A DNA stretch of 64,000 bases from IMG/VR virus record IMGVR_UViG_3300049212_000062, positions 34 to 64,033 of that record, one strand, 5' to 3'. This DNA comes from a virus. Taxonomy: Duplodnaviria; Caudoviricetes. The translations under genes were made by a program, and so were the position numbers. The notes under the pieces are model-generated. The model saw only the letters and a program-made list of their open reading frames with translations. It made no database searches and was not told the DNA's origin. Each line of letters begins with the position of its first letter. Within the stretch, counting starts at the first letter, position 1. This document shows positions 2,054 to 31,552 of the stretch, piece after piece.

Positions 2054-2508
2054 TTGTACTCCACAGCCACCCCCTGACCGGTTGCATAGTCCAAGAAGCA
2101 CTGCCTTGCGTCCCGCCAAGACCAGCACACGGCGACTGCATAGCCCACGCTTCGCAGATCGCCGTGCCACTGCTCCTGAGTCTCCGAAACGCGCCCGCCC
2201 GGCAGTACCTTCATCTCGATGTACAGCCCTGCGAACACGCCACGGGGGACCGGCCAGCAGATGTCCGGTACGCCGCTCTTCACACCCTCCGTCTTGAGGC
2301 GAGACGCAACGATCAGATTACGCTCGCCGCCGTTTGGCACAGCATACGCCAGACGGGCCAGTGGATGCGTACCTAGATTTATTTGGATTTGCAACCACGC
2401 GAAGAAAGCTCGCTGTTCGGCATGCTCGGTCTTCGCCTTGGCTAGACCGTCGCAGTACGCGTCGACGTCTAAGCCTGCGGCAACTTCCTGGGCTGTTTTC
2501 TTCGTCAT
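2038..2508 (-). CDS. VRR-NUC family nuclease (Holliday junction resolvase-like)
   Basis: AVPNGGER...LKTEGVKSGVPD...LYIEMK...SETQEQW PD-(D/E)XK motifs. Confidence 0.88.
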   Translation of the reverse strand: MTKKTAQEVAAGLDVDAYCDGLAKAKTEHAEQRAFFAWLQIQINLGTHPLARLAYAVPNGGERNLIVASRLKTEGVKSGVPDICWPVPRGVFAGLYIEMKVLPGGRVSETQEQWHGDLRSVGYAVAVCWSWRDARQCFLDYATGQGVAVEYKCQQP

Positions 2509-2858
2509 TTGTTGAACAAGTCGATGGCGTTACGCAGTTGACCACAGTTGGCGCACTGCACGCACGGCGTACCGTCGGCAGCCAAGATGATGCAGAACAG
2601 CCAGCCACGGCAGCATTCACAGTGCCACGTCGGCGCCTTGCTGTAGGTGACAAACTCAGAGAAGATGCCCTTGCGCGCGTGACAGCGCGGGCACTCGAAG
2701 CCTTCGCCCTGGCCTACGTCGCGCGAAGAACCCGGGTCACCAACCTTGGCAACACCGCGGAACCTGTGCTCGCACGCGCCGCAGACGACCTCGCCCTGCG
2801 CGTGCGGGTTGTCGGGCTCTTGGGGCCTGCGTGGCTCAAACTGGTGGACTGTGCCCAT
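2505..2858 (-). CDS. Multi-CxxC zinc-binding hypothetical protein
   Basis: Four CxxC pairs (CGAC, CPRC, CECC, CANC). Confidence 0.65.
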   Translation of the reverse strand: MGTVHQFEPRRPQEPDNPHAQGEVVCGACEHRFRGVAKVGDPGSSRDVGQGEGFECPRCHARKGIFSEFVTYSKAPTWHCECCRGWLFCIILAADGTPCVQCANCGQLRNAIDLFNK

Positions 2859-3228
2859 TGGGTCGCCTCCCGGGCGGTAGTGGGCCCGTGGCGGCCTCGC
2901 GCACGTACTTGCGCACGCTGGCTAGGCTGACACCGACCTCCTGTGCGATCACTTCGTACTTCCCGCCGGCTCGCACCTTCGCCAGCACGGCATCACGCCG
3001 GGCGTGGTACGTGCGCATGCGCTCTGCCCCGCGCCGGTTGTGCCCCAGCAATTCCTGGACCCGCTTGCCGGCGAACTTCTTGATCAGTGTCTCCAAGACT
3101 TCAACGGTGTTGAAGCGGTGCGCTACCGGTTCGGCAGTGCAGCCCATGCGCCGAACGACGTAAAACTCGCCGTTCGGCGTGCGTGTTGAAAGGACGCGCG
3201 CAGGCGCCCCGCAGTACCGGCACAGCAC
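2836..3228 (-). CDS. Zn-ribbon plus HTH protein, putative transcriptional regulator
   Basis: GTG start at 3228 after AGGGGG; CRYCG...RRMGC...HRFNTVE (NrdR/Ogr-like ribbon) and a C-terminal YEVIAQEVGVSLASVRKY HTH. Confidence 0.6.
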   Translation of the reverse strand: MLCRYCGAPARVLSTRTPNGEFYVVRRMGCTAEPVAHRFNTVEVLETLIKKFAGKRVQELLGHNRRGAERMRTYHARRDAVLAKVRAGGKYEVIAQEVGVSLASVRKYVREAATGPLPPGRRPNGHSPPV

Positions 3229-3236
3229 CCAACCCC

Positions 3237-3683
3237 CTAGCCGGCGGCCGTTTGGCCCGTGGCGGGGCCGCCAGCCTCGCGCGCGGGGTGGTATGGGCAG
3301 GAGTCGGACCGTGCACAAGCGCGCGTCGGGCAGTGCATGCAGCCCGGTACGGGCGGCGGGAGCGGCCACTCCGGGGTCTCTGGCAGGTTGGCACGCAACG
3401 CAGCCGCCAGGGCCTTGTCAACCTCTTCCAGCTTCTGCAGCACGTGGCGGGCCTTGCCGATGTCCACCGGGCCCGCCTTGTCGCGCTCTCTGGCAATGTA
3501 GACAATTGCCTCACCCTTGAGGTAGCCTCGGAACTCCTCGGGCGTCAACCACGCCTCCAGCGCTTGCCAGGGCGTGATCTTCAGCTTGCTGTAATGGTCA
3601 CCGCCGACTTGGTGCTGGTCGAGCCGGTTCGGCGCATCCGTCGAGCGTGTCGCGCCAAGTGACGCCGGTGAAGCTGCGGTCAT
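3237..3683 (-). CDS. DUF3310 (SaV-like) protein
   Basis: QVGGDHY...GYLKGEAIVYIARERDK...DIGKARH motif. Confidence 0.8.
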   Translation of the reverse strand: MTAASPASLGATRSTDAPNRLDQHQVGGDHYSKLKITPWQALEAWLTPEEFRGYLKGEAIVYIARERDKAGPVDIGKARHVLQKLEEVDKALAAALRANLPETPEWPLPPPVPGCMHCPTRACARSDSCPYHPAREAGGPATGQTAAG

Positions 3684-3805
3684 AGTGTTCTCGCAATTGG
3701 GTTGACTGGGCCGCTAACCACATGCGCAGCGCCTCTTCGCCGTGTAGTTCTTTGACAACCGGGACGGGCAAGGGCTTCACGAGTGGTACTGCGGTACTCA
3801 TGGCG

Positions 3806-4042
3806 TCACAGTTTACCGCGCAGCCTCAGCAGTTCAGCTTCACGCTCGTGGTTGCGCTTCGGCAGCGGTGCCCAGCCGAGATAACGGTTGCCCTTGTCGT
3901 CCCAGGGCCCGCGAACGCAGATGCCGCCGACCGTAAGCAAGTGCACGTCGGCGCCCTTGGGCGGCTTCTCGTCGCCGAGCGCTGGATACTTGTATTCGTC
4001 GACCTTGCCGGCGACGTAGCTCGGGCCTTGGTGTGTGGTCAT
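3806..4042 (-). CDS. Hypothetical phage protein
   Basis: ATG at 4042 after GAGG; PPKGADVHLLTVGG...GWAPLPK. Confidence 0.6.
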   Translation of the reverse strand: MTTHQGPSYVAGKVDEYKYPALGDEKPPKGADVHLLTVGGICVRGPWDDKGNRYLGWAPLPKRNHEREAELLRLRGKL

Positions 4043-4107
4043 AGCAGTTCCTCGCAGGCAAGCGCCACCAGTAGGCAGCAAAGGAAGATCGGGTACATGG
4101 CGGCAGG

Positions 4108-4368
4108 TCAGCAGATGGGGTTGAAGGGTTTGTATTGCGCCTCGAGGTAGGCGTGGGCGATGTGCGCGTTGACGGCCGCACGTGCGCCGATGTCGAAGGC
4201 GTCTGGCGCGGTGTCCAAGAAGCAGCCGACGTCGATTTGGTTCTGCACGTCGTCTTCACTGGCACCGCGAAGCAACTGCCCCGCAGCCCAGTTCCAGCCG
4301 CTGTCGAACCGCTGGGCGGTGCGCTGCGTGCGGCGGTTGCGCAGCCAAGCCATCAGCCGGGCTAGCAC
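4108..4368 (-). CDS. Hypothetical protein
   Basis: Protein-like ORF in operon context. Confidence 0.55.
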   Translation of the reverse strand: MLARLMAWLRNRRTQRTAQRFDSGWNWAAGQLLRGASEDDVQNQIDVGCFLDTAPDAFDIGARAAVNAHIAHAYLEAQYKPFNPIC

Positions 4369-15433: not shown

Positions 15434-15823
15434 TCACGGCGCGGCCCAGCCCTTGTCGACGCCATAGGCGGCCACGGCCACCCCGCCAGCCTTCAGCAAC
15501 TGCCAGAACGTGCCGGCGAGCTGCACCTGGGCTTCTGCGTAGGCCACGCGGTACTCGTCATAGAGCGCGATGTCTTCGACAATGGTGCGTGCCACAACCG
15601 AGGCGGCGTCGAGATAGGCTTCGCTTGTGGCGCTGTACCATTGCACGGTCATTGCGCTGTACCATTGCACGGTCCTGGACATGTCGTGCTTCGCGGCTAG
15701 GGCTTTCTGTTGTTCGCCAAGACCGGTCAGGTGTTGCGCCAGCTCGCGCAGGTTCTTGAAAACGTAGTTCACGGCAGGCTCCAAGCCAGTTGTTCGGTCA
15801 GGTGGCGAATGCGGGCCAAGCAC
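15434..15823 (-). CDS. Hypothetical protein with an internal duplication (start uncertain)
   Basis: TVQWYSA occurs twice. Confidence 0.5.
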   Translation of the reverse strand: MLGPHSPPDRTTGLEPAVNYVFKNLRELAQHLTGLGEQQKALAAKHDMSRTVQWYSAMTVQWYSATSEAYLDAASVVARTIVEDIALYDEYRVAYAEAQVQLAGTFWQLLKAGGVAVAAYGVDKGWAAP

Positions 15824-15969
15824 GTCGACTCGCGCTGCGCCAGGGCGACCCAGGGGTCAGACAGCACCATGTGACGCGCCATGTCGACGCGCAGCTTGGC
15901 AAGCAGGGCGTTGAAGTCCTTGAGGTCACGCAGGATGGCAATGACCTCGGCGATGGTGAGTTCGGGCAT
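15769..15969 (-). CDS. Hypothetical protein
   Basis: AGGAG RBS. Confidence 0.6.
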   Translation of the reverse strand: MPELTIAEVIAILRDLKDFNALLAKLRVDMARHMVLSDPWVALAQRESTCLARIRHLTEQLAWSLP

Positions 15970-15977
15970 GGCGGCTC

Positions 15978-16169
15978 CTAGGCGCGTTGCAGACCGAGTT
16001 CCTTGACCCGCAGACCCTTGCCCGCTGCGAGGCCCGCCTGCGGCCGGCTAAGGGCCTGCATGCAGGCGTCGCGACGGCTACACGGGATCTGCTGCACGAC
16101 GATGAGCGTCACGGGATCGTACACGTAGACGTCATCGTCGTTGAAGGCTTGGCGCGGGATGATGTGCAT
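15978..16169 (-). CDS. Hypothetical protein
   Basis: Second ORF of the early operon. Confidence 0.55.
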   Translation of the reverse strand: MHIIPRQAFNDDDVYVYDPVTLIVVQQIPCSRRDACMQALSRPQAGLAAGKGLRVKELGLQRA

Positions 16170-16185
16170 GGTGGGTGCTGCCAGT

Positions 16186-16380
16186 TTAGCGGGCCAGGGC
16201 CGGGGCGGACTTGACGTAGTAGCCGCGCGCCTTGCGCCAGTGGTAGAAGGCGATCTCGGCGCTGGTGACGTTGAGCTCTGCGGCGGCTGCCACTTCGCGG
16301 GCCATGGCGACCGTTGCGGTGAGGCCCAGTTCGTCGAACAGGCTGAAGAGGATGGCGGTGATGGTGGTGCGGGTGGTCAT
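16186..16380 (-). CDS. 64-aa early protein, stand-alone WRK-domain paralogue
   Basis: AGGAG RBS; LFDELG...AAAAELNVTSAEIAFYHWRK resembles the C-termini of 30361-31029 and 31610-32185. Confidence 0.7.
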   Translation of the reverse strand: MTTRTTITAILFSLFDELGLTATVAMAREVAAAAELNVTSAEIAFYHWRKARGYYVKSAPALAR

Positions 16381-16427
16381 GATGTAGCTCCTGGGTTGGC
16401 GACTGCGTTGTTGCTGTCGATGAATGG

Positions 16428-16481
16428 ACTGTAAGGTCTACATCGATGCACGTCTAGTCGGAGTTACATCTGTTACATCTC
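16428..16481 (-). promoter_or_regulatory. Promoter TAGACG-N17-TACAGT with an upstream GAGATGTAACAGATGTAAC box
   Basis: The same tandem ATGTAAC box precedes the promoter at 40261. Confidence 0.7.
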
Positions 16482-16499
16482 CCGATGTACAGCGTATGT

Positions 16500-17171
16500 G
16501 CCCCGTCACGAGTGAACACGGGGCCACGTTCGGCGCACCGCCCTTGCGGCCAACCCGCAAGCGCTCCTCTACTCAGACCACCGGCCCGAAGGATTCGAAC
16601 CGACTACCGGGGCAAAACACAAGGTTAGCTGACACCCGACGCGTTCCCAGACGCGCATTGACCGTGGCCTGCATACCGCACCAGCCTGCTCACGGTGGCG
16701 GCTGGCCGGGTTGGCTTACGCGCAGTGCGGCAACCCTGTTGAATTGGTGGGCGTCTGCGGATACCGCTAGACAGGCCACCACGCACCGGATATTTCGCCG
16801 TAGTGCCTTGCTGGTGGCCGACTGCCCGTAGGTGGCGACAAGTAGTGCCAGTGTCTTCTAACCATGTAGACACAAGCGCATTCGCCGTAAGGCTTGGGCA
16901 CCGCCGTACAACCGGCCTGACGCTGCCCGCCTGCGCACAGTACACGGCCGTGATGGACGTGACGCAGGCTCTGTTCACGCTAACGTTCAGTTCTGGGTGA
17001 CTGTTCTCGTCCGGCATTGTTGGCTGGTCATGCCTCCCGCCGGCGGGGCTGTCGCATAGCCTCGTGTCTAGCGTCCTAGCGGACACCACCGACCAAACGC
17101 TCTAGCTCGCCGCAAGGGTGCCAGTGCAAAGGGCCAGTTAGACACTGCGCAATGCGCTTGTGTTTGTTGGT
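16500..17171 (-). ncRNA. Candidate large structured ncRNA (about 670 nt)
   Basis: Own promoter; 13-bp long-range helix 17151-17163/16870-16882; crossing helix 17137-17147/16849-16862; at least six further hairpins; no credible ORF. Confidence 0.65.
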
Positions 17172-17177
17172 GAGTGC

Positions 17178-17206
17178 ACTGTACGGCCGTTAGTTTGTGA
17201 GCACAA
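17178..17206 (-). promoter_or_regulatory. Promoter TTGTGC-N17-TACAGT driving the candidate ncRNA
   Basis: Matches the other phage promoters; predicted start near 17171, about 8 nt before the first helix. Confidence 0.7.
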
Positions 17207-17244
17207 GCGATGAGGTTGACCACACCTTGCCTGTGCGTGCCGCC

Positions 17245-17530
17245 TACGTAATGGGTAATGCTTACGCTTTAATCGTGAATAACAGTAATGCTAATTGGCT
17301 GCCCATAGGTACTACTACACTATTATTATTCGTTTATTTATTTATTCATACAAAAACTCATTATTAGCTTATTCATTATTTATAATGGCATTATGCATAT
17401 ATGCCAGTAATGTAAAATAATAAGGGAAGTACCATGACGGGTTAAAGGCGCTAATTTGAATAATTTCAGTAATGCATAATGGTATTACGAAAGCCTTATT
17501 GTTTTGCTCTGTGCTGGCAAACAAATATAC
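17245..17530. other. AT-rich putative replication origin with GTAATG repeats
   Basis: Only strongly AT-rich stretch in the genome; lies at the strand-divergence point; GTAATG at 17248, 17255, 17285, 17407 and 17469. Confidence 0.6.
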
Positions 17531-17570
17531 GGTACACTGGCACCTAGATTATTCGCGAAGGATGTTACAC

Positions 17571-18080
17571 ATGGCCGCCTTACCTGAAGACTTCCGCGTG
17601 CAGTCTCTTGAGGAGATTGACCCGCACACGCTGGGCAAGCAACCCGGGCCGTTTGACGCCCCGCCGCGCGAGGAGTGGCCTACGTACGAACTAAGCGGCG
17701 AGCGTTGGGACCTGGACAACCCGCCGACCCGACTCCCGCACGAAACCTATCGCATGTGGCTAAGTCGTCTGTACGCGCACTCTTTGTTCTGGGCCAACGA
17801 GGACACCAAACAACAAAAGCAGACCCCGGCATCCGACCGCCCACGCGGCAGGCCCAGCCAATACCCGACGCTTCCGGGGGAGCCGGCGGCGGAGCGCACC
17901 AAGCGGCTGAATCGCGAAGCGCAAGCGCGCTGGCGTGCGACGCACAAGCCGGGCAAGAAAGCCACGTACACACCGGAGCTGCGCGCTGTATACGACGAAT
18001 GGGTGGCGGTGCGCGACCAAATCAACGCCCTCACGATTCGTGCTACGGAGTTGAAGGCGCGACTTGACAACGGGGCGTAA
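17571..18080 (+). CDS. Hypothetical DNA-binding protein (AT-hook-like RPRGRP plus basic helix)
   Basis: Probable ATG at 17571; RPRGRPS and RTKRLNREAQARWRA. Confidence 0.6.
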   Translation: MAALPEDFRVQSLEEIDPHTLGKQPGPFDAPPREEWPTYELSGERWDLDNPPTRLPHETYRMWLSRLYAHSLFWANEDTKQQKQTPASDRPRGRPSQYPTLPGEPAAERTKRLNREAQARWRATHKPGKKATYTPELRAVYDEWVAVRDQINALTIRATELKARLDNGA

Positions 18081-18089
18081 ACACCCGTT

Positions 18090-18118
18090 TTGCGACGTAA
18101 GCGGGCCGCGTGTACACT
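18090..18118 (+). promoter_or_regulatory. Promoter TTGCGA-N17-TACACT
   Basis: Upstream of the HTH/primase operon. Confidence 0.65.
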
Positions 18119-18150: not shown

Positions 18151-18432
18151 ATGCACCCTGCCACGCCACCGGACAGCGAAACCGCGCAACAGCGGTTTGA
18201 CAGGCTGTACATCGCCAGCAGCGAAATCTGTCGCGAACTGGGTGTCACCCGCACCACGGTACTCGCTGCCCGGCGCAGGGGGTTACTGCCTGAGCCCATT
18301 GCGGTGAATGGCTGCACCCTGTACATCTGGGAGCGCCACGTTGCTCGGCCGTTTATCGACGCGTGGAAGGTCATCCTCAACACCCGTCGCAACCACTACG
18401 CCGCACAGCAGGCCGCAGCAGTACCCGCATGA
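18151..18432 (+). CDS. AlpA/excisionase-like winged-HTH DNA-binding protein
   Basis: SEICRELGVTRTTV...RGLLPEPI...YIW. Confidence 0.75.
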   Translation: MHPATPPDSETAQQRFDRLYIASSEICRELGVTRTTVLAARRRGLLPEPIAVNGCTLYIWERHVARPFIDAWKVILNTRRNHYAAQQAAAVPA

Positions 18433-20846
18433 CCACACAGGCGCCCGCGTGGGATCGCCTGCCTGTGGAACTTCGCCAGCGCCCTCAGTGGCTGTTGGCA
18501 GGGCCCAATGAGCTCGGCGAACTCAAAGTCCCAACCACCGTCACGCTGGACGGTAGGCCAGCCCCTGGCAGCCACAGCGACCCGGGCACATGGCTTGACT
18601 ACGACTACGCGGCGCAGTGCGCCCGGGAGTTCGGCTACGGCTTGGGCTACGTGCTGTCCGCGGACGACCCGTTCACCTGCGTCGACCTGGACATCAAGAA
18701 CCAGCACAACGCACCTAACAACCCAGAGTTGTGGACGCCGGCTGACCGCATTGAAACCATGCGGTACATTGCCGAGGAGCTGGACAGCTATACCGAGCTG
18801 TCGCAAAGCGGCCAGGGCGTGCACGTATGGTGCTACGGGGATATCGGCGAAGGCGTCAAGCGCAAGGGCGTTGAGGTCTACAGCAAGTTGCGCTTCATTG
18901 CCTGCACGGGCAAGACGATTCACGCGCCACCCAAACCCATCGCAGAGCGCCAGGAGGGCCTCGGCGTGTTGGTTGCCAGTATGCGCGCGGCGCAGGAGGC
19001 ACAGCGCGGGCACTTGCAGGACAACGAAGACGAGCTGACCGACGACGAAGTTTGGCGGCGTGGCAGCACGGCGGACAACGCAGAGAAGTTTATCAAACTC
19101 TGCGAGGGCAAGTGGCAAGAGCTGGGCTACCCGAGCCAGTCCGAAGCCGACCTGTCGCTCATGTCCATGTTCACCTTCTACAGCCGCAGCAACGAGCAAT
19201 GCCGCCGGCTGTTCCGGCATACGGCGCTGGGGCAGAGAGAGAAGGCAACGAAGAACGACCGTTACCTTGACTACACGCTGCGGTTGATCCGCGGTAGGCA
19301 GGCGAAGGAAGAAGCCGCTGTGCAGGCCCTGGCAGCCCAGGGGCAGGCCCTGCTGTCAAGGCTGGCCCAAGCCCAGCAGGCCGCCCAGGGCGCGCCACAG
19401 CCCGCCGCAGGCCCCGTGCCGGGCAATGTGCGGGCTGTGGCGCTGGACTATGTGGCGGAGCTACAGGCGCAGACGCCGGCACCGCCCATGCCACCCCGGC
19501 CACCCGAGCCACCGGCTGGCGGTATCGACTGGCCGCCGGGGCTGGTGGGAGACATCGCCCGCTTCGTCTACAACGCCGCGCCGAGGCCCGTCAAGGAGGT
19601 TGCCATCGTTGCGGCGTTGGGCTGGATGGCAGGGGTGTGCGGCAAGGTCTGGGTGATCCCCGGCAGCGGCCTCAATATGTACATCATCCTTGTCGCCCGC
19701 AGCGGTGTCGGCAAGGAGGCTATGCATGGCGGGCTAGGTGCACTGACACACCGATTGCGCGAAGGCGTACCACTGGCCGGGCAGTTCGTTGACTTCAACG
19801 ACTTTGCCTCCGGCCCTGCCCTTGCCAAAGCCTGCGCCAACAACAGCAGCTTCGTCAACGTTGCGGGCGAGTTCGGTCGCAAGCTGCAACGCCTTGCCAA
19901 CAACGTCGGCGACGGGCCCATGCAGAGCCTGCGCACGGTGATGACAAACCTGTACCAGAAGTCAGGACCGGCCAGCATCGCCGGCGGTATCACCTACAGC
20001 GCCAAAGACAGCAGCGTCGCCGCCGTGTCCGGTGTGGCCTACAGCATGATCGGCGAAACCACGCCCGATACGCTGTACGCCAGTCTGACGGAAAGCATGA
20101 TGGAAGACGGTTTCTTGAGCCGCTTCACCATCATCGAATACACCGGTACACGGCCACGCAGCAACCCGTTCCCTAATCTTATCCCGTCACCCGACCTTGT
20201 GCAGCGTTGCCAGAACTTATGCCACACGGCTGCCGCAGCTATCGGTAACCACACCCGACATTACCTGCAACGCACGCAGGGCGCAGCAGCGGTCATGGAC
20301 GCCTTTGACGCTGAGTGCGACGCACAAATCAACGGCAGCGAAGACGAGTCGGTGCGGCAAATGTGGAACCGGGCTCACCTGAAGATGGTGCGAATGGCTG
20401 GGCTGCTGTGCATAGGGGAAGACCCACAGAACCCGACCATTGACGTGCATCACTGCACCTGGGCCCTAGACGTCGTGCGGCGCGACATTGCGCTTATGCA
20501 GCGGCGCATGGAAGCTGGGGACGTGGGCCAGGGCGACAACAGCCGGGACAAGAAGCTTCTGCATATTATCCACGAGTTCCTCACGCAGCCCCTGGGCCCG
20601 AGCTACGGCGTGCCCGCCGTCATGCAGCGTGACGCAGTGGTGCCCCGCAAATACCTGCAGATGCGTGTCAGCCGCGTCGCCAGTTTCAACCAGCACCCGC
20701 TCGGCGCAAAGCGTGCCCTGGACGACGCTATTCAAAGTTGTTGTGACAGCGGCTACATCGTTGAAATGGACAAGAACAAGGCGGGTGAGCAATACACCTT
20801 CATGGGTCGCTGCTATCGCGTAGTGAACCTCCCTAAGTTCAGCTAG
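18429..20846 (+). CDS. Primase-polymerase (AEP, NrS-1-like) fused to a DUF3987-like helicase domain
   Basis: LPVELRQRPQW, CVDLD, YTELSQSGQGVH, EVYS..RF and SQSEADL, then ARSGVGKE and DGFLSRF. Confidence 0.88.
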   Translation: MTTQAPAWDRLPVELRQRPQWLLAGPNELGELKVPTTVTLDGRPAPGSHSDPGTWLDYDYAAQCAREFGYGLGYVLSADDPFTCVDLDIKNQHNAPNNPELWTPADRIETMRYIAEELDSYTELSQSGQGVHVWCYGDIGEGVKRKGVEVYSKLRFIACTGKTIHAPPKPIAERQEGLGVLVASMRAAQEAQRGHLQDNEDELTDDEVWRRGSTADNAEKFIKLCEGKWQELGYPSQSEADLSLMSMFTFYSRSNEQCRRLFRHTALGQREKATKNDRYLDYTLRLIRGRQAKEEAAVQALAAQGQALLSRLAQAQQAAQGAPQPAAGPVPGNVRAVALDYVAELQAQTPAPPMPPRPPEPPAGGIDWPPGLVGDIARFVYNAAPRPVKEVAIVAALGWMAGVCGKVWVIPGSGLNMYIILVARSGVGKEAMHGGLGALTHRLREGVPLAGQFVDFNDFASGPALAKACANNSSFVNVAGEFGRKLQRLANNVGDGPMQSLRTVMTNLYQKSGPASIAGGITYSAKDSSVAAVSGVAYSMIGETTPDTLYASLTESMMEDGFLSRFTIIEYTGTRPRSNPFPNLIPSPDLVQRCQNLCHTAAAAIGNHTRHYLQRTQGAAAVMDAFDAECDAQINGSEDESVRQMWNRAHLKMVRMAGLLCIGEDPQNPTIDVHHCTWALDVVRRDIALMQRRMEAGDVGQGDNSRDKKLLHIIHEFLTQPLGPSYGVPAVMQRDAVVPRKYLQMRVSRVASFNQHPLGAKRALDDAIQSCCDSGYIVEMDKNKAGEQYTFMGRCYRVVNLPKFS

Positions 20847-31523: not shown

Positions 31524-31552
31524 TTGTGCTCAAACCCGCTCCCTGCTACATT
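31524..31552 (+). promoter_or_regulatory. Promoter TTGTGC-N17-TACATT with extended -10 TG
   Basis: Core CCCTGCTACATTGCCA is identical to 58652-58667 on the minus strand. Confidence 0.7.

Follow-up and report, generated by a model that had tools for sequence, protein, structure and literature searches.

A covarying H-type pseudoknot RNA in phages related to Nipunavirus, with a divergent member ahead of the early genes of a 64-kb virus

The DNA analyzed here (the window) is a 64,000-nt stretch of the IMG/VR virus record IMGVR_UViG_3300049212_000062, which is complete at 64,033 bp, has direct repeats at its termini and represents a virulent-type soil phage related to Nipunavirus. At the head of its leftward early genes lies a non-coding stretch of about 830 nt, in which an initial annotation, made from the letters alone, had proposed a long-range pseudoknotted RNA of about 670 nt. 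We report that the minus strand of this stretch carries, at 17067-17000, a divergent member of a compact H-type pseudoknot RNA family that is conserved beside the primase module of a phage lineage. On the strength of sequence comparison, the reading that we favor, and to which we give a little less than an even chance, treats the locus as a non-coding transcription unit, or as a long leader, in which the conserved knot would act in cis and so license expression of the early genes. The elements concerned are the following.

17178-17206, minus strand: sigma-70-like promoter, TTGTGC-N17-TACAGT, with a predicted start near 17171, recognized from motif counts and from relatives
17064-17145, minus strand: P0 domain, in which the stem GUGUCUA/UAGACAC (17145-17139 with 17070-17064) closes two sub-hairpins in both the minimum-free-energy (MFE) and the centroid folds
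17000-17067, minus strand: H-type pseudoknot motif, scored at 28.9 bits (E 3.5e-5) by the covariance model R3

The leftward early region of phage PaMx25 contains a conserved non-coding unit which is common to 19 phage records at 71-100% identity (16 Pseudomonas, 2 Xanthomonas and 1 Variovorax, RefSeq/GenBank duplicates being counted), as well as to IMG/VR relatives. The family core within it is 66 nt long and consists of a GAC, a bulged hairpin (7 bp, bulge of 3 nt), and a hairpin loop that pairs about 25 nt downstream; the third loop, GACCACAUAAU, is conserved and A-rich. Covariance models found more distant members at the loci L011, L031, L026, L030, L016, L023, L028 and L022 and in the Acinetobacter phage HD01. 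The pairing was assessed in an alignment of 17 distinct sequences, from which the window was excluded, over 13 pairs (the 7-bp bulged hairpin and a 6-bp helix between the loop and the 3' segment). Pairs are formed in 95.4% of 218 cells of this alignment, as compared to 71.7% in shuffles, and double-sided changes are seen at 12 of the 13 pairs. The covariation score of 0.562 (0.121 in shuffles) was reached by none of 500 shuffles, and controls in which the pairing was slid gave at most 0.122. When the 16 Nipunavirus-type sequences were taken alone, all 177 cells paired, with double changes at 4 pairs. A U-G pair is kept in 15 of the 17 sequences and thereby fixes the strand of the RNA. The data show that the pseudoknot covaries across the family and that its RNA strand corresponds to the minus strand of the window.

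The setting of the knot is also preserved. Its position is constant in the family, on the leftward strand and beside the primase module, and promoter-like hexamers were seen by eye 39-104 nt 5' of the knot in all 12 relatives examined. The PaMx25 unit begins with TTGTGC-N17-TATAGT, whose -35 context, GCTTGTGCTC, is identical to that of the window, and a TTGTGC-type motif precedes the conserved RNA in seven relatives' loci (L004, L006, L007, L008, L029, L037 and L038). The PaMx25 unit ends in an annotated intrinsic terminator, and the ATG of the next gene follows about 35 nt beyond it, a gap that leaves no space for a separate promoter. Strong terminator-like hairpins also lie some 250-300 nt past the knot in L016 and L028. 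A downstream terminator is a feature of some family members and stands outside the core motif; judged by eye, the spacer between knot and terminator varies from about 15 to 200 nt among the relatives. In PaMx25-type units (L037:2757-3000, minus strand) the hexamer CCUGGG is present in three copies, one immediately 5' of the knot and one in each terminator arm; by eye, any two copies could pair via G-U, and a choice between terminator and antiterminator is one possible outcome.

The distribution of the family was followed in IMG/VR by a motif pattern scan, in which 14 of 53 stretches passed model R3; 11 of these 14 lie on contigs already known through their primase. As far as the scan pattern can detect, the family would thus be confined to this primase-defined phage lineage. 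A second pattern, GACAGCC-N16-TGACCAG, gave at least 119 stretches, and all 80 of those listed are chance matches according to R3. Rfam holds no model of the family, giving no relevant match in the window or in PaMx25 2400-4200 (E up to 1). Full-text literature searches found no description of this RNA in Nipunavirus or PaMx25. In three records small "hypothetical proteins" have been annotated over the RNA unit (Quinobequin-P09, L041:194-736; Sew_P3, L042:407-771; HD01, L168:2958-3083), and other GenBank records leave the unit unannotated; these ORFs are probably spurious. The supplements of PMC10690425 catalogue 8,495 candidates for structured RNAs that were drawn from IMG/VR, and the family may already be among them.

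Membership of the window's RNA in the family is supported by R3, a model built with the window excluded and structured on the loop helix. The knot was the top match of this model, the next match in the window reaching 10.1 bits. The window's GAC occupies 17053-17051, the two strands of hairpin H are 17051-17045 and 17038-17029, and the loop helix CCGGC (17043-17039)/GCCGG (17015-17011) provides five of the six family pairs. In total, 10 of the 13 family pairs form in register, and the hairpin extends to 7 bp if its bulges are shifted. The P0 domain is flanked by the conserved GCGCAG on its 5' side and GAGGC on its 3' side and matches, by eye, the variable hairpin found between these two motifs in the family alignments. 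The promoter lies about 104 nt ahead of the knot motif, on the minus strand and beside the primase gene, which fits the family setting. The window thus shares its 66-nt core, strand, site beside the primase module and TTGTGC-type promoter with the Nipunavirus units (PaMx25, NP1, JG012, JG054, PAJD-1, Quinobequin-P09, PIP, DoCa3 and VPv62) and with Acinetobacter phage HD01. It differs from them in having two single-A bulges in the hairpin where the family has one 3-nt bulge, in its third loop (GACCAGCCAACAAU instead of the family sequence), in a P0 that is longer by about 50 nt, and in ending not in a terminator but in an unrelated tail of about 500 nt. We accept the window's RNA as a divergent family member, noting that the choice of model was post hoc. 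A pseudoknotted RNA on the minus strand, as initially proposed, is therefore retained, as a conserved element lacking an Rfam family; its form is the compact H-type fold of about 66 nt at 17067-17000 rather than a long-range A-B-A'-B' arrangement.

The promoter had also been proposed in the initial annotation; it is present, points into the non-coding stretch, and carries a conserved motif. The pattern TTGTGC-N16-18-TANANT occurs twice in the window as compared to 0.05 expected. A consensus promoter scan omits the site, which falls below the threshold with a first hexamer matching at 3 of 6 positions. The sole other genome match to the TTGTGCTCA-type motif is TTGTGC-N17-TACATT at 31524-31552 on the plus strand.

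The non-coding stretch is flanked by an AT-rich divergent control region (17230-17470, GC 0.29-0.36) and by the first leftward gene.

16186-16380, minus strand: first leftward gene, 64 aa, with AGGAG 7 nt 5' of its ATG and a strong periodicity of GC at the third codon position (GC3)

Codon-position GC periodicity is flat over 16351-17610, the longest such run in the genome. The two longest open reading frames (ORFs) of the stretch have no PHROG match; one of 154 aa (16625-17089) has no protein relative among 5.8 billion clusters, in which it does not have an entry of its own either. The use of tblastn with 35 stop-to-stop frames against the relatives' loci gave no match (best E 0.046), and natural variants contain 1-nt indels at 17159, 17163 and 16483/16489. 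Taken together, these results indicate that the stretch is non-coding, in agreement with the initial claim that it contains no protein-like ORF. As a whole it has no homologue by blastn among 50,697 phage records, none by blastn and nhmmer among the 35 relatives' loci, and none by an exact 27-mer scan of IMG/VR.

The presence of the RNA in environmental transcripts was looked for over the region 15800-18100 in four of 22 runs; contigs are sparse, so that an uncovered part says nothing on silence. The contigs recovered from two soil metatranscriptome runs of different studies are described by one feature.

16969-17158, strand unreadable from the contigs: stand-alone RNA contigs

In run X18 the one fitting contig covers 16985-17153 (169 nt, no differences), and in run X19 it covers 16969-17158 (190 nt, 3 differences); nothing else from either run fits 15800-18100. 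These contigs are a hint of expression, carrying neither strand nor level, and are not proof of it. Of the highly expressed RNA of about 670 nt in the initial annotation, they represent 16969-17158 only. Two DNA-type runs provided natural variation. Differences fall at 7 of 488 positions of the non-coding part in X16 and at 13 of 733 in X13; for pieces of the flanking coding sequence the counts are 18 of 231 (X16), 9 of 406 and 11 of 213 (both X13). The non-coding stretch, tail included, is thus less variable than the flanking genes in both runs. Individual variants named in the text are among the variants listed.

The mechanism that we propose, at the strength given above, would run as follows. 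The host-type promoter at 17206-17178 would start an RNA near 17171, the first 180 nt or so of which would fold into the P0 hairpin domain and then the H-type knot; the roughly 500 nt that follow would be lineage-specific non-coding sequence. The knot would act in cis on its own transcript or on the polymerase, through processive antitermination, read-through or stabilization of the 5' end, and would thereby license expression of the early genes downstream. In the window phage the 5' end of the RNA could, in addition, pair with several sites in the tail. We infer a cis role from the relatives, in which the knot is preceded by the promoter and followed by a terminator that has to be read through to reach the next genes, and it is further favored by the next gene of PaMx25, which has no promoter of its own.

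The putL and putR elements of phage HK022 are RNA-only processive antiterminators composed of two stem-loops, with no pseudoknot; they bind and modify the polymerase that is transcribing them and thereby suppress terminators further along in cis. They are set alongside the H-type knot by position only: put is a folded RNA just past an early promoter and ahead of terminators, which is the position of the knot in the relatives, and a comparable action in cis is what we suggest for it. The fold class, in which a hairpin loop pairs with a 3' segment and an A-rich loop is present, is that of the preQ1-II and SAM-II riboswitches and of the T4 gene 32 leader; according to a passage of PMC10690425, the T4 gene 32 pseudoknot likewise lies in a phage 5' leader. 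The window knot has no Rfam match to preQ1-II or SAM-II, and, with some 620 nt between it and the first start codon, it is not a translational operator of the T4 type.

Several observations weigh against the proposed cis-acting leader, or against the window's place in the family. With the hairpin-structured models the window scored no higher than 10.0 bits (R1; E 2.5, rank 1) and 10.9 bits (R2; E 1.1, rank 2), and the pseudoknot-structured R3 was chosen after the window's pairing had been seen. The motif is absent from the closest primase relatives, L002 (60%) and L003 (54%), and from phages R7M and Knedl. Unlike PaMx25, L016 and L028, the window has no intrinsic terminator-like site from 17206 to 15800 of its minus strand, so that the terminator logic of the relatives is carried to it by homology alone. 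A weak promoter-like site ahead of the first leftward gene (TAGACG-N17-TACAGT, 16456-16428, minus strand) could start that gene on its own, in which case the RNA would be a separate gene. As for the RNA contigs, their ends match polymorphic indels (17159, 17163) and breaks of DNA contigs (16978, 16991) and are not RNA ends; carry-over of DNA into the RNA libraries is possible, and only 4 of the 22 runs are covered.

One alternative, which we regard as unlikely though it retains some weight, is the proposal of the initial annotation that 17171-16500 forms a single large structured RNA of about 670 nt, closed by long-range helices and representing a new class of large phage RNA. The features that bear on it are these.

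17140-17165, minus strand: near-palindromic 5' end of the RNA (26 nt), with five perfectly complementary sites further along
16870-16882, minus strand: 3' partner of the 13-bp helix A, a perfect complement
16565-16999, minus strand: lineage-specific non-coding tail, with no codon periodicity, no similarity to relatives and no folding signal
16540-16564, minus strand: GC-rich hairpin, 16564-16555 with 16549-16540, with a compensatory natural variant
16500-16524, minus strand: second hairpin, 7 bp with an 11-nt loop and no U-tract, a perfect complement at which no terminator is called

The 5' end speaks in its favor. Segment 17165-17140 has five perfect partners downstream, at 16882-16870 (13 bp), 16623-16615 (9 bp), and 16660-16653, 16727-16720 and 16856-16849 (8 bp each), whereas 2000 dinucleotide shuffles gave a mean of 0.26 such sites, a maximum of 3 and none at 5. 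The helices A and B on which the annotation had relied are two of these five sites, and further long-range complements of 9-10 bp are present. Helix A was reached by none of 200 shuffles; a comparable 5' helix occurs in one of 12 relatives, and pairing at multiple sites in none of the 12. Helix A exceeds chance but is specific to this lineage. A shared long-range 5' helix was considered as a family feature and dropped on these counts (one of 12 relatives at no more than 1/200 shuffles). As for helix B, its 5' strand is better explained by the local stem 17145-17139/17070-17064, and the variant 16861 A>G breaks the helix. Since all five sites call on overlapping parts of the 5' segment, their use is mutually exclusive save for non-overlapping pairs such as A and B.

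The remainder of the proposed structure finds less support. All eight helices of the initial annotation can be located, seven as perfect complements and helix B, as had been described, as 6 + 5 bp with a 3-nt bulge. Their tiling of the tail is nevertheless what chance provides: local stems of 6, 7 and 8 bp that span no more than 60 nt occur 16, 5 and 1 times, as compared to 12.2, 3.2 and 0.8 in shuffles, and the variant 16779 C>T breaks the helix 16774-81/16812-19. The MFE of the whole minus-strand stretch has a z-score of -0.91, with 6 of 20 shuffles folding as well; the plus strand scores -0.26, and the 495 nt at the 3' end (16490-16984, minus strand) score -0.19, so that on folding energy, which the annotation itself had named as grounds for abandoning the large RNA, the stretch does not stand apart from its shuffled controls. 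The suggested kinship with ROOL, GOLLD, OLE, HEARO or raiA found no support, since none of these matched at gathering scores in the whole window or at E up to 10 in 16000-17600, where only CRISPR-DR28, STnc420 and CC3513 appeared, all weak and unrelated. These classes resemble the proposed RNA in size range, and ROOL and GOLLD are phage-associated, but the stretch shows neither a covariance-model match nor a thermodynamic signal. The T-loop-like GGTTCGAATCC is located at 16601-16591, as had been claimed; by eye it has two flanking pairs only, where a T arm would have a 5-bp stem, and is not part of a tRNA-like arm, and ARAGORN found no tRNA or tmRNA in the whole window.

The tail has no homologue and hence no support from covariation. 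Promoter-to-terminator units of about 220-450 nt in the relatives, and some 890 ORF-free nt past the knot in L023, speak for the large RNA, as does the low variability of the stretch noted above. Natural variants lend support to one structure in the tail, the 16564-16540 hairpin: in run X13 the changes 16544 T>C and 16560 A>G convert a U-A pair to C-G, and 16561 G>A and 16540 G>A yield G-U pairs on the minus-strand RNA. This hairpin is the sole supported structure in the approximately 500-nt tail. The 16500-16524 hairpin is a possible 3' boundary of the RNA, and the variable indels at 16483/16489, which include a CAG duplication, lie just downstream of it. The sequence GCCAACCC occurs twice on the minus strand, at 16393-16400, immediately before the first gene's AGGAG, and at 16707-16715; both copies are complementary to GGGUUGGC, which lies toward the loop in the 16564-16540 hairpin. 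Patches of similarity link the tails of L016, L023, L026 and L028 to one another, and none links them to that of the window. A profile of the Nipunavirus 3' module, made from a rough alignment, likewise misses the window's RNA, its best match (E 0.52) being at another place in the genome. A tandem 19-20-nt repeat, CCCACCTACTATTTTTTGA, is common to L016:2516-2558 and L023:2384-2421, inside long non-coding stretches.

A scenario that we hold to be quite unlikely is that of a separate small RNA, about 190-300 nt long and running from 17171 to approximately 16970-16870, which would be stabilized by the knot and would act in trans, either targeting host or phage RNAs or titrating a protein. The metatranscriptome contigs are confined to 16969-17158, the Nipunavirus-type unit is an ORF-free cassette from promoter to terminator, and helix A would close a domain at 17163-16870. 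Such an RNA would have to end where no terminator-like site exists, near 16970-16870; the contig ends on which its length would be based fall at polymorphic sites, and the promoterless next gene of PaMx25 favors action in cis.

An extension of the cis-acting leader, which we find doubtful, would make the RNA a self-addressing riboregulator, in which the knot engages the polymerase or a protein, and successive hand-overs of the 5' end among its five sites in the tail of about 500 nt, made while transcription proceeds, time or gate entry of the polymerase into the early genes. The CI RNA of P4 and the c4 antisense RNAs of P1 and P7 (Rfam C4) serve the immunity of temperate elements. They resemble the window in that an RNA from a leader can pair with more than one site of that leader, as 17165-17140 can with its five sites. 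They differ in that the window has no match to C4 or any other Rfam family, and the multi-site pairing is not found in the relatives. If this extension were true, the virulent-type phage would possess an RNA-only timer with a logic like that of P4 CI, and the RNA of about 670 nt would be one functional molecule.

It is also conceivable, although improbable in our judgment, that the 3' 500-600 nt and the near-palindrome following the promoter act as DNA, serving as operators or contributing to a replication origin next to the primase module. The imperfect palindrome (17163-17142) lies at +8 to +30, related half-sites recur downstream, and an AT-rich repeat tract adjoins. In the relatives, L028:1551-1825 and L026:3744-4010, both after the RNA motif, contain at least four GTTAAC-based repeats of 22-25 nt, direct and inverted, with an iteron- or operator-like appearance. 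With up to 3 mismatches, however, AATGCGCNNGTGTCTA occurs 6 times in the window as compared to 5.7 expected, and GCGCATTGCGC 9 times as compared to 8.3, which gives no repeated operator consensus; the five sites match differing parts of the 5' segment, and the knot covaries as RNA, with G-U pairs.

That the knot is the aptamer of a riboswitch controlling a downstream terminator, perhaps sensing a 7-deazaguanine precursor, is very improbable. The H-type fold, its conserved A-rich third loop, the terminator downstream in relatives and the placement of those relatives in Queuovirinae are all in line with it, but no preQ1-I, -II or -III, SAM-II, guanidine-III or other class was matched (E up to 10 in the window and up to 1 in PaMx25 2400-4200), the spacer between knot and terminator is variable, the window lacks a terminator, and the Queuovirinae phage R7M lacks the motif. 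A decayed or unrecognized protein-coding gene, such as the 154-aa ORF, is scarcely credible, as the mild GC3 excess at 16870-17140 in the frame of that ORF is set against missing protein relatives and PHROG matches, 1-nt indels, and its overlap with an RNA motif that changes in a compensatory manner.

The surroundings of the locus were also recorded. The primase-helicase gene (18363-20846) encodes a protein with about 53% identity to those of PaMx25, NP1 and JG054 (Nipunavirus, Queuovirinae) and 43-60% identity to those of 35 IMG/VR contigs. A RecD/UvrD-like helicase is encoded within the leftward block. A neighboring protein of 169/202 aa has four relatives at 48-53% identity and none in IMG/VR, and a metagenome scan for it gave one 25-residue match. 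The AT-rich divergent region contains, at 17278-17480, three 14-mers of the CAGTAATG type and one 24-nt AT repeat. A tandem ATGTAAC repeat at 16478-16463 precedes, by eye, the promoter-like site at 16456-16428, and a related ATGTAGAC is found at 16443-16436.

For the window, a defined element of 66 nt takes the place of the speculative, ornate giant RNA. For the family, the results bring to light a compact, covarying knot that has remained unannotated, or hidden under spurious-looking ORFs, in cultured and tractable phages of Pseudomonas, Xanthomonas, Variovorax and Acinetobacter. Should the knot prove to promote read-through or antitermination as an RNA-only device, this would be a second structural solution among the very few known (put, EAR); and if antitermination is indeed its role, it would explain how the terminator ahead of the early genes of these phages is passed.

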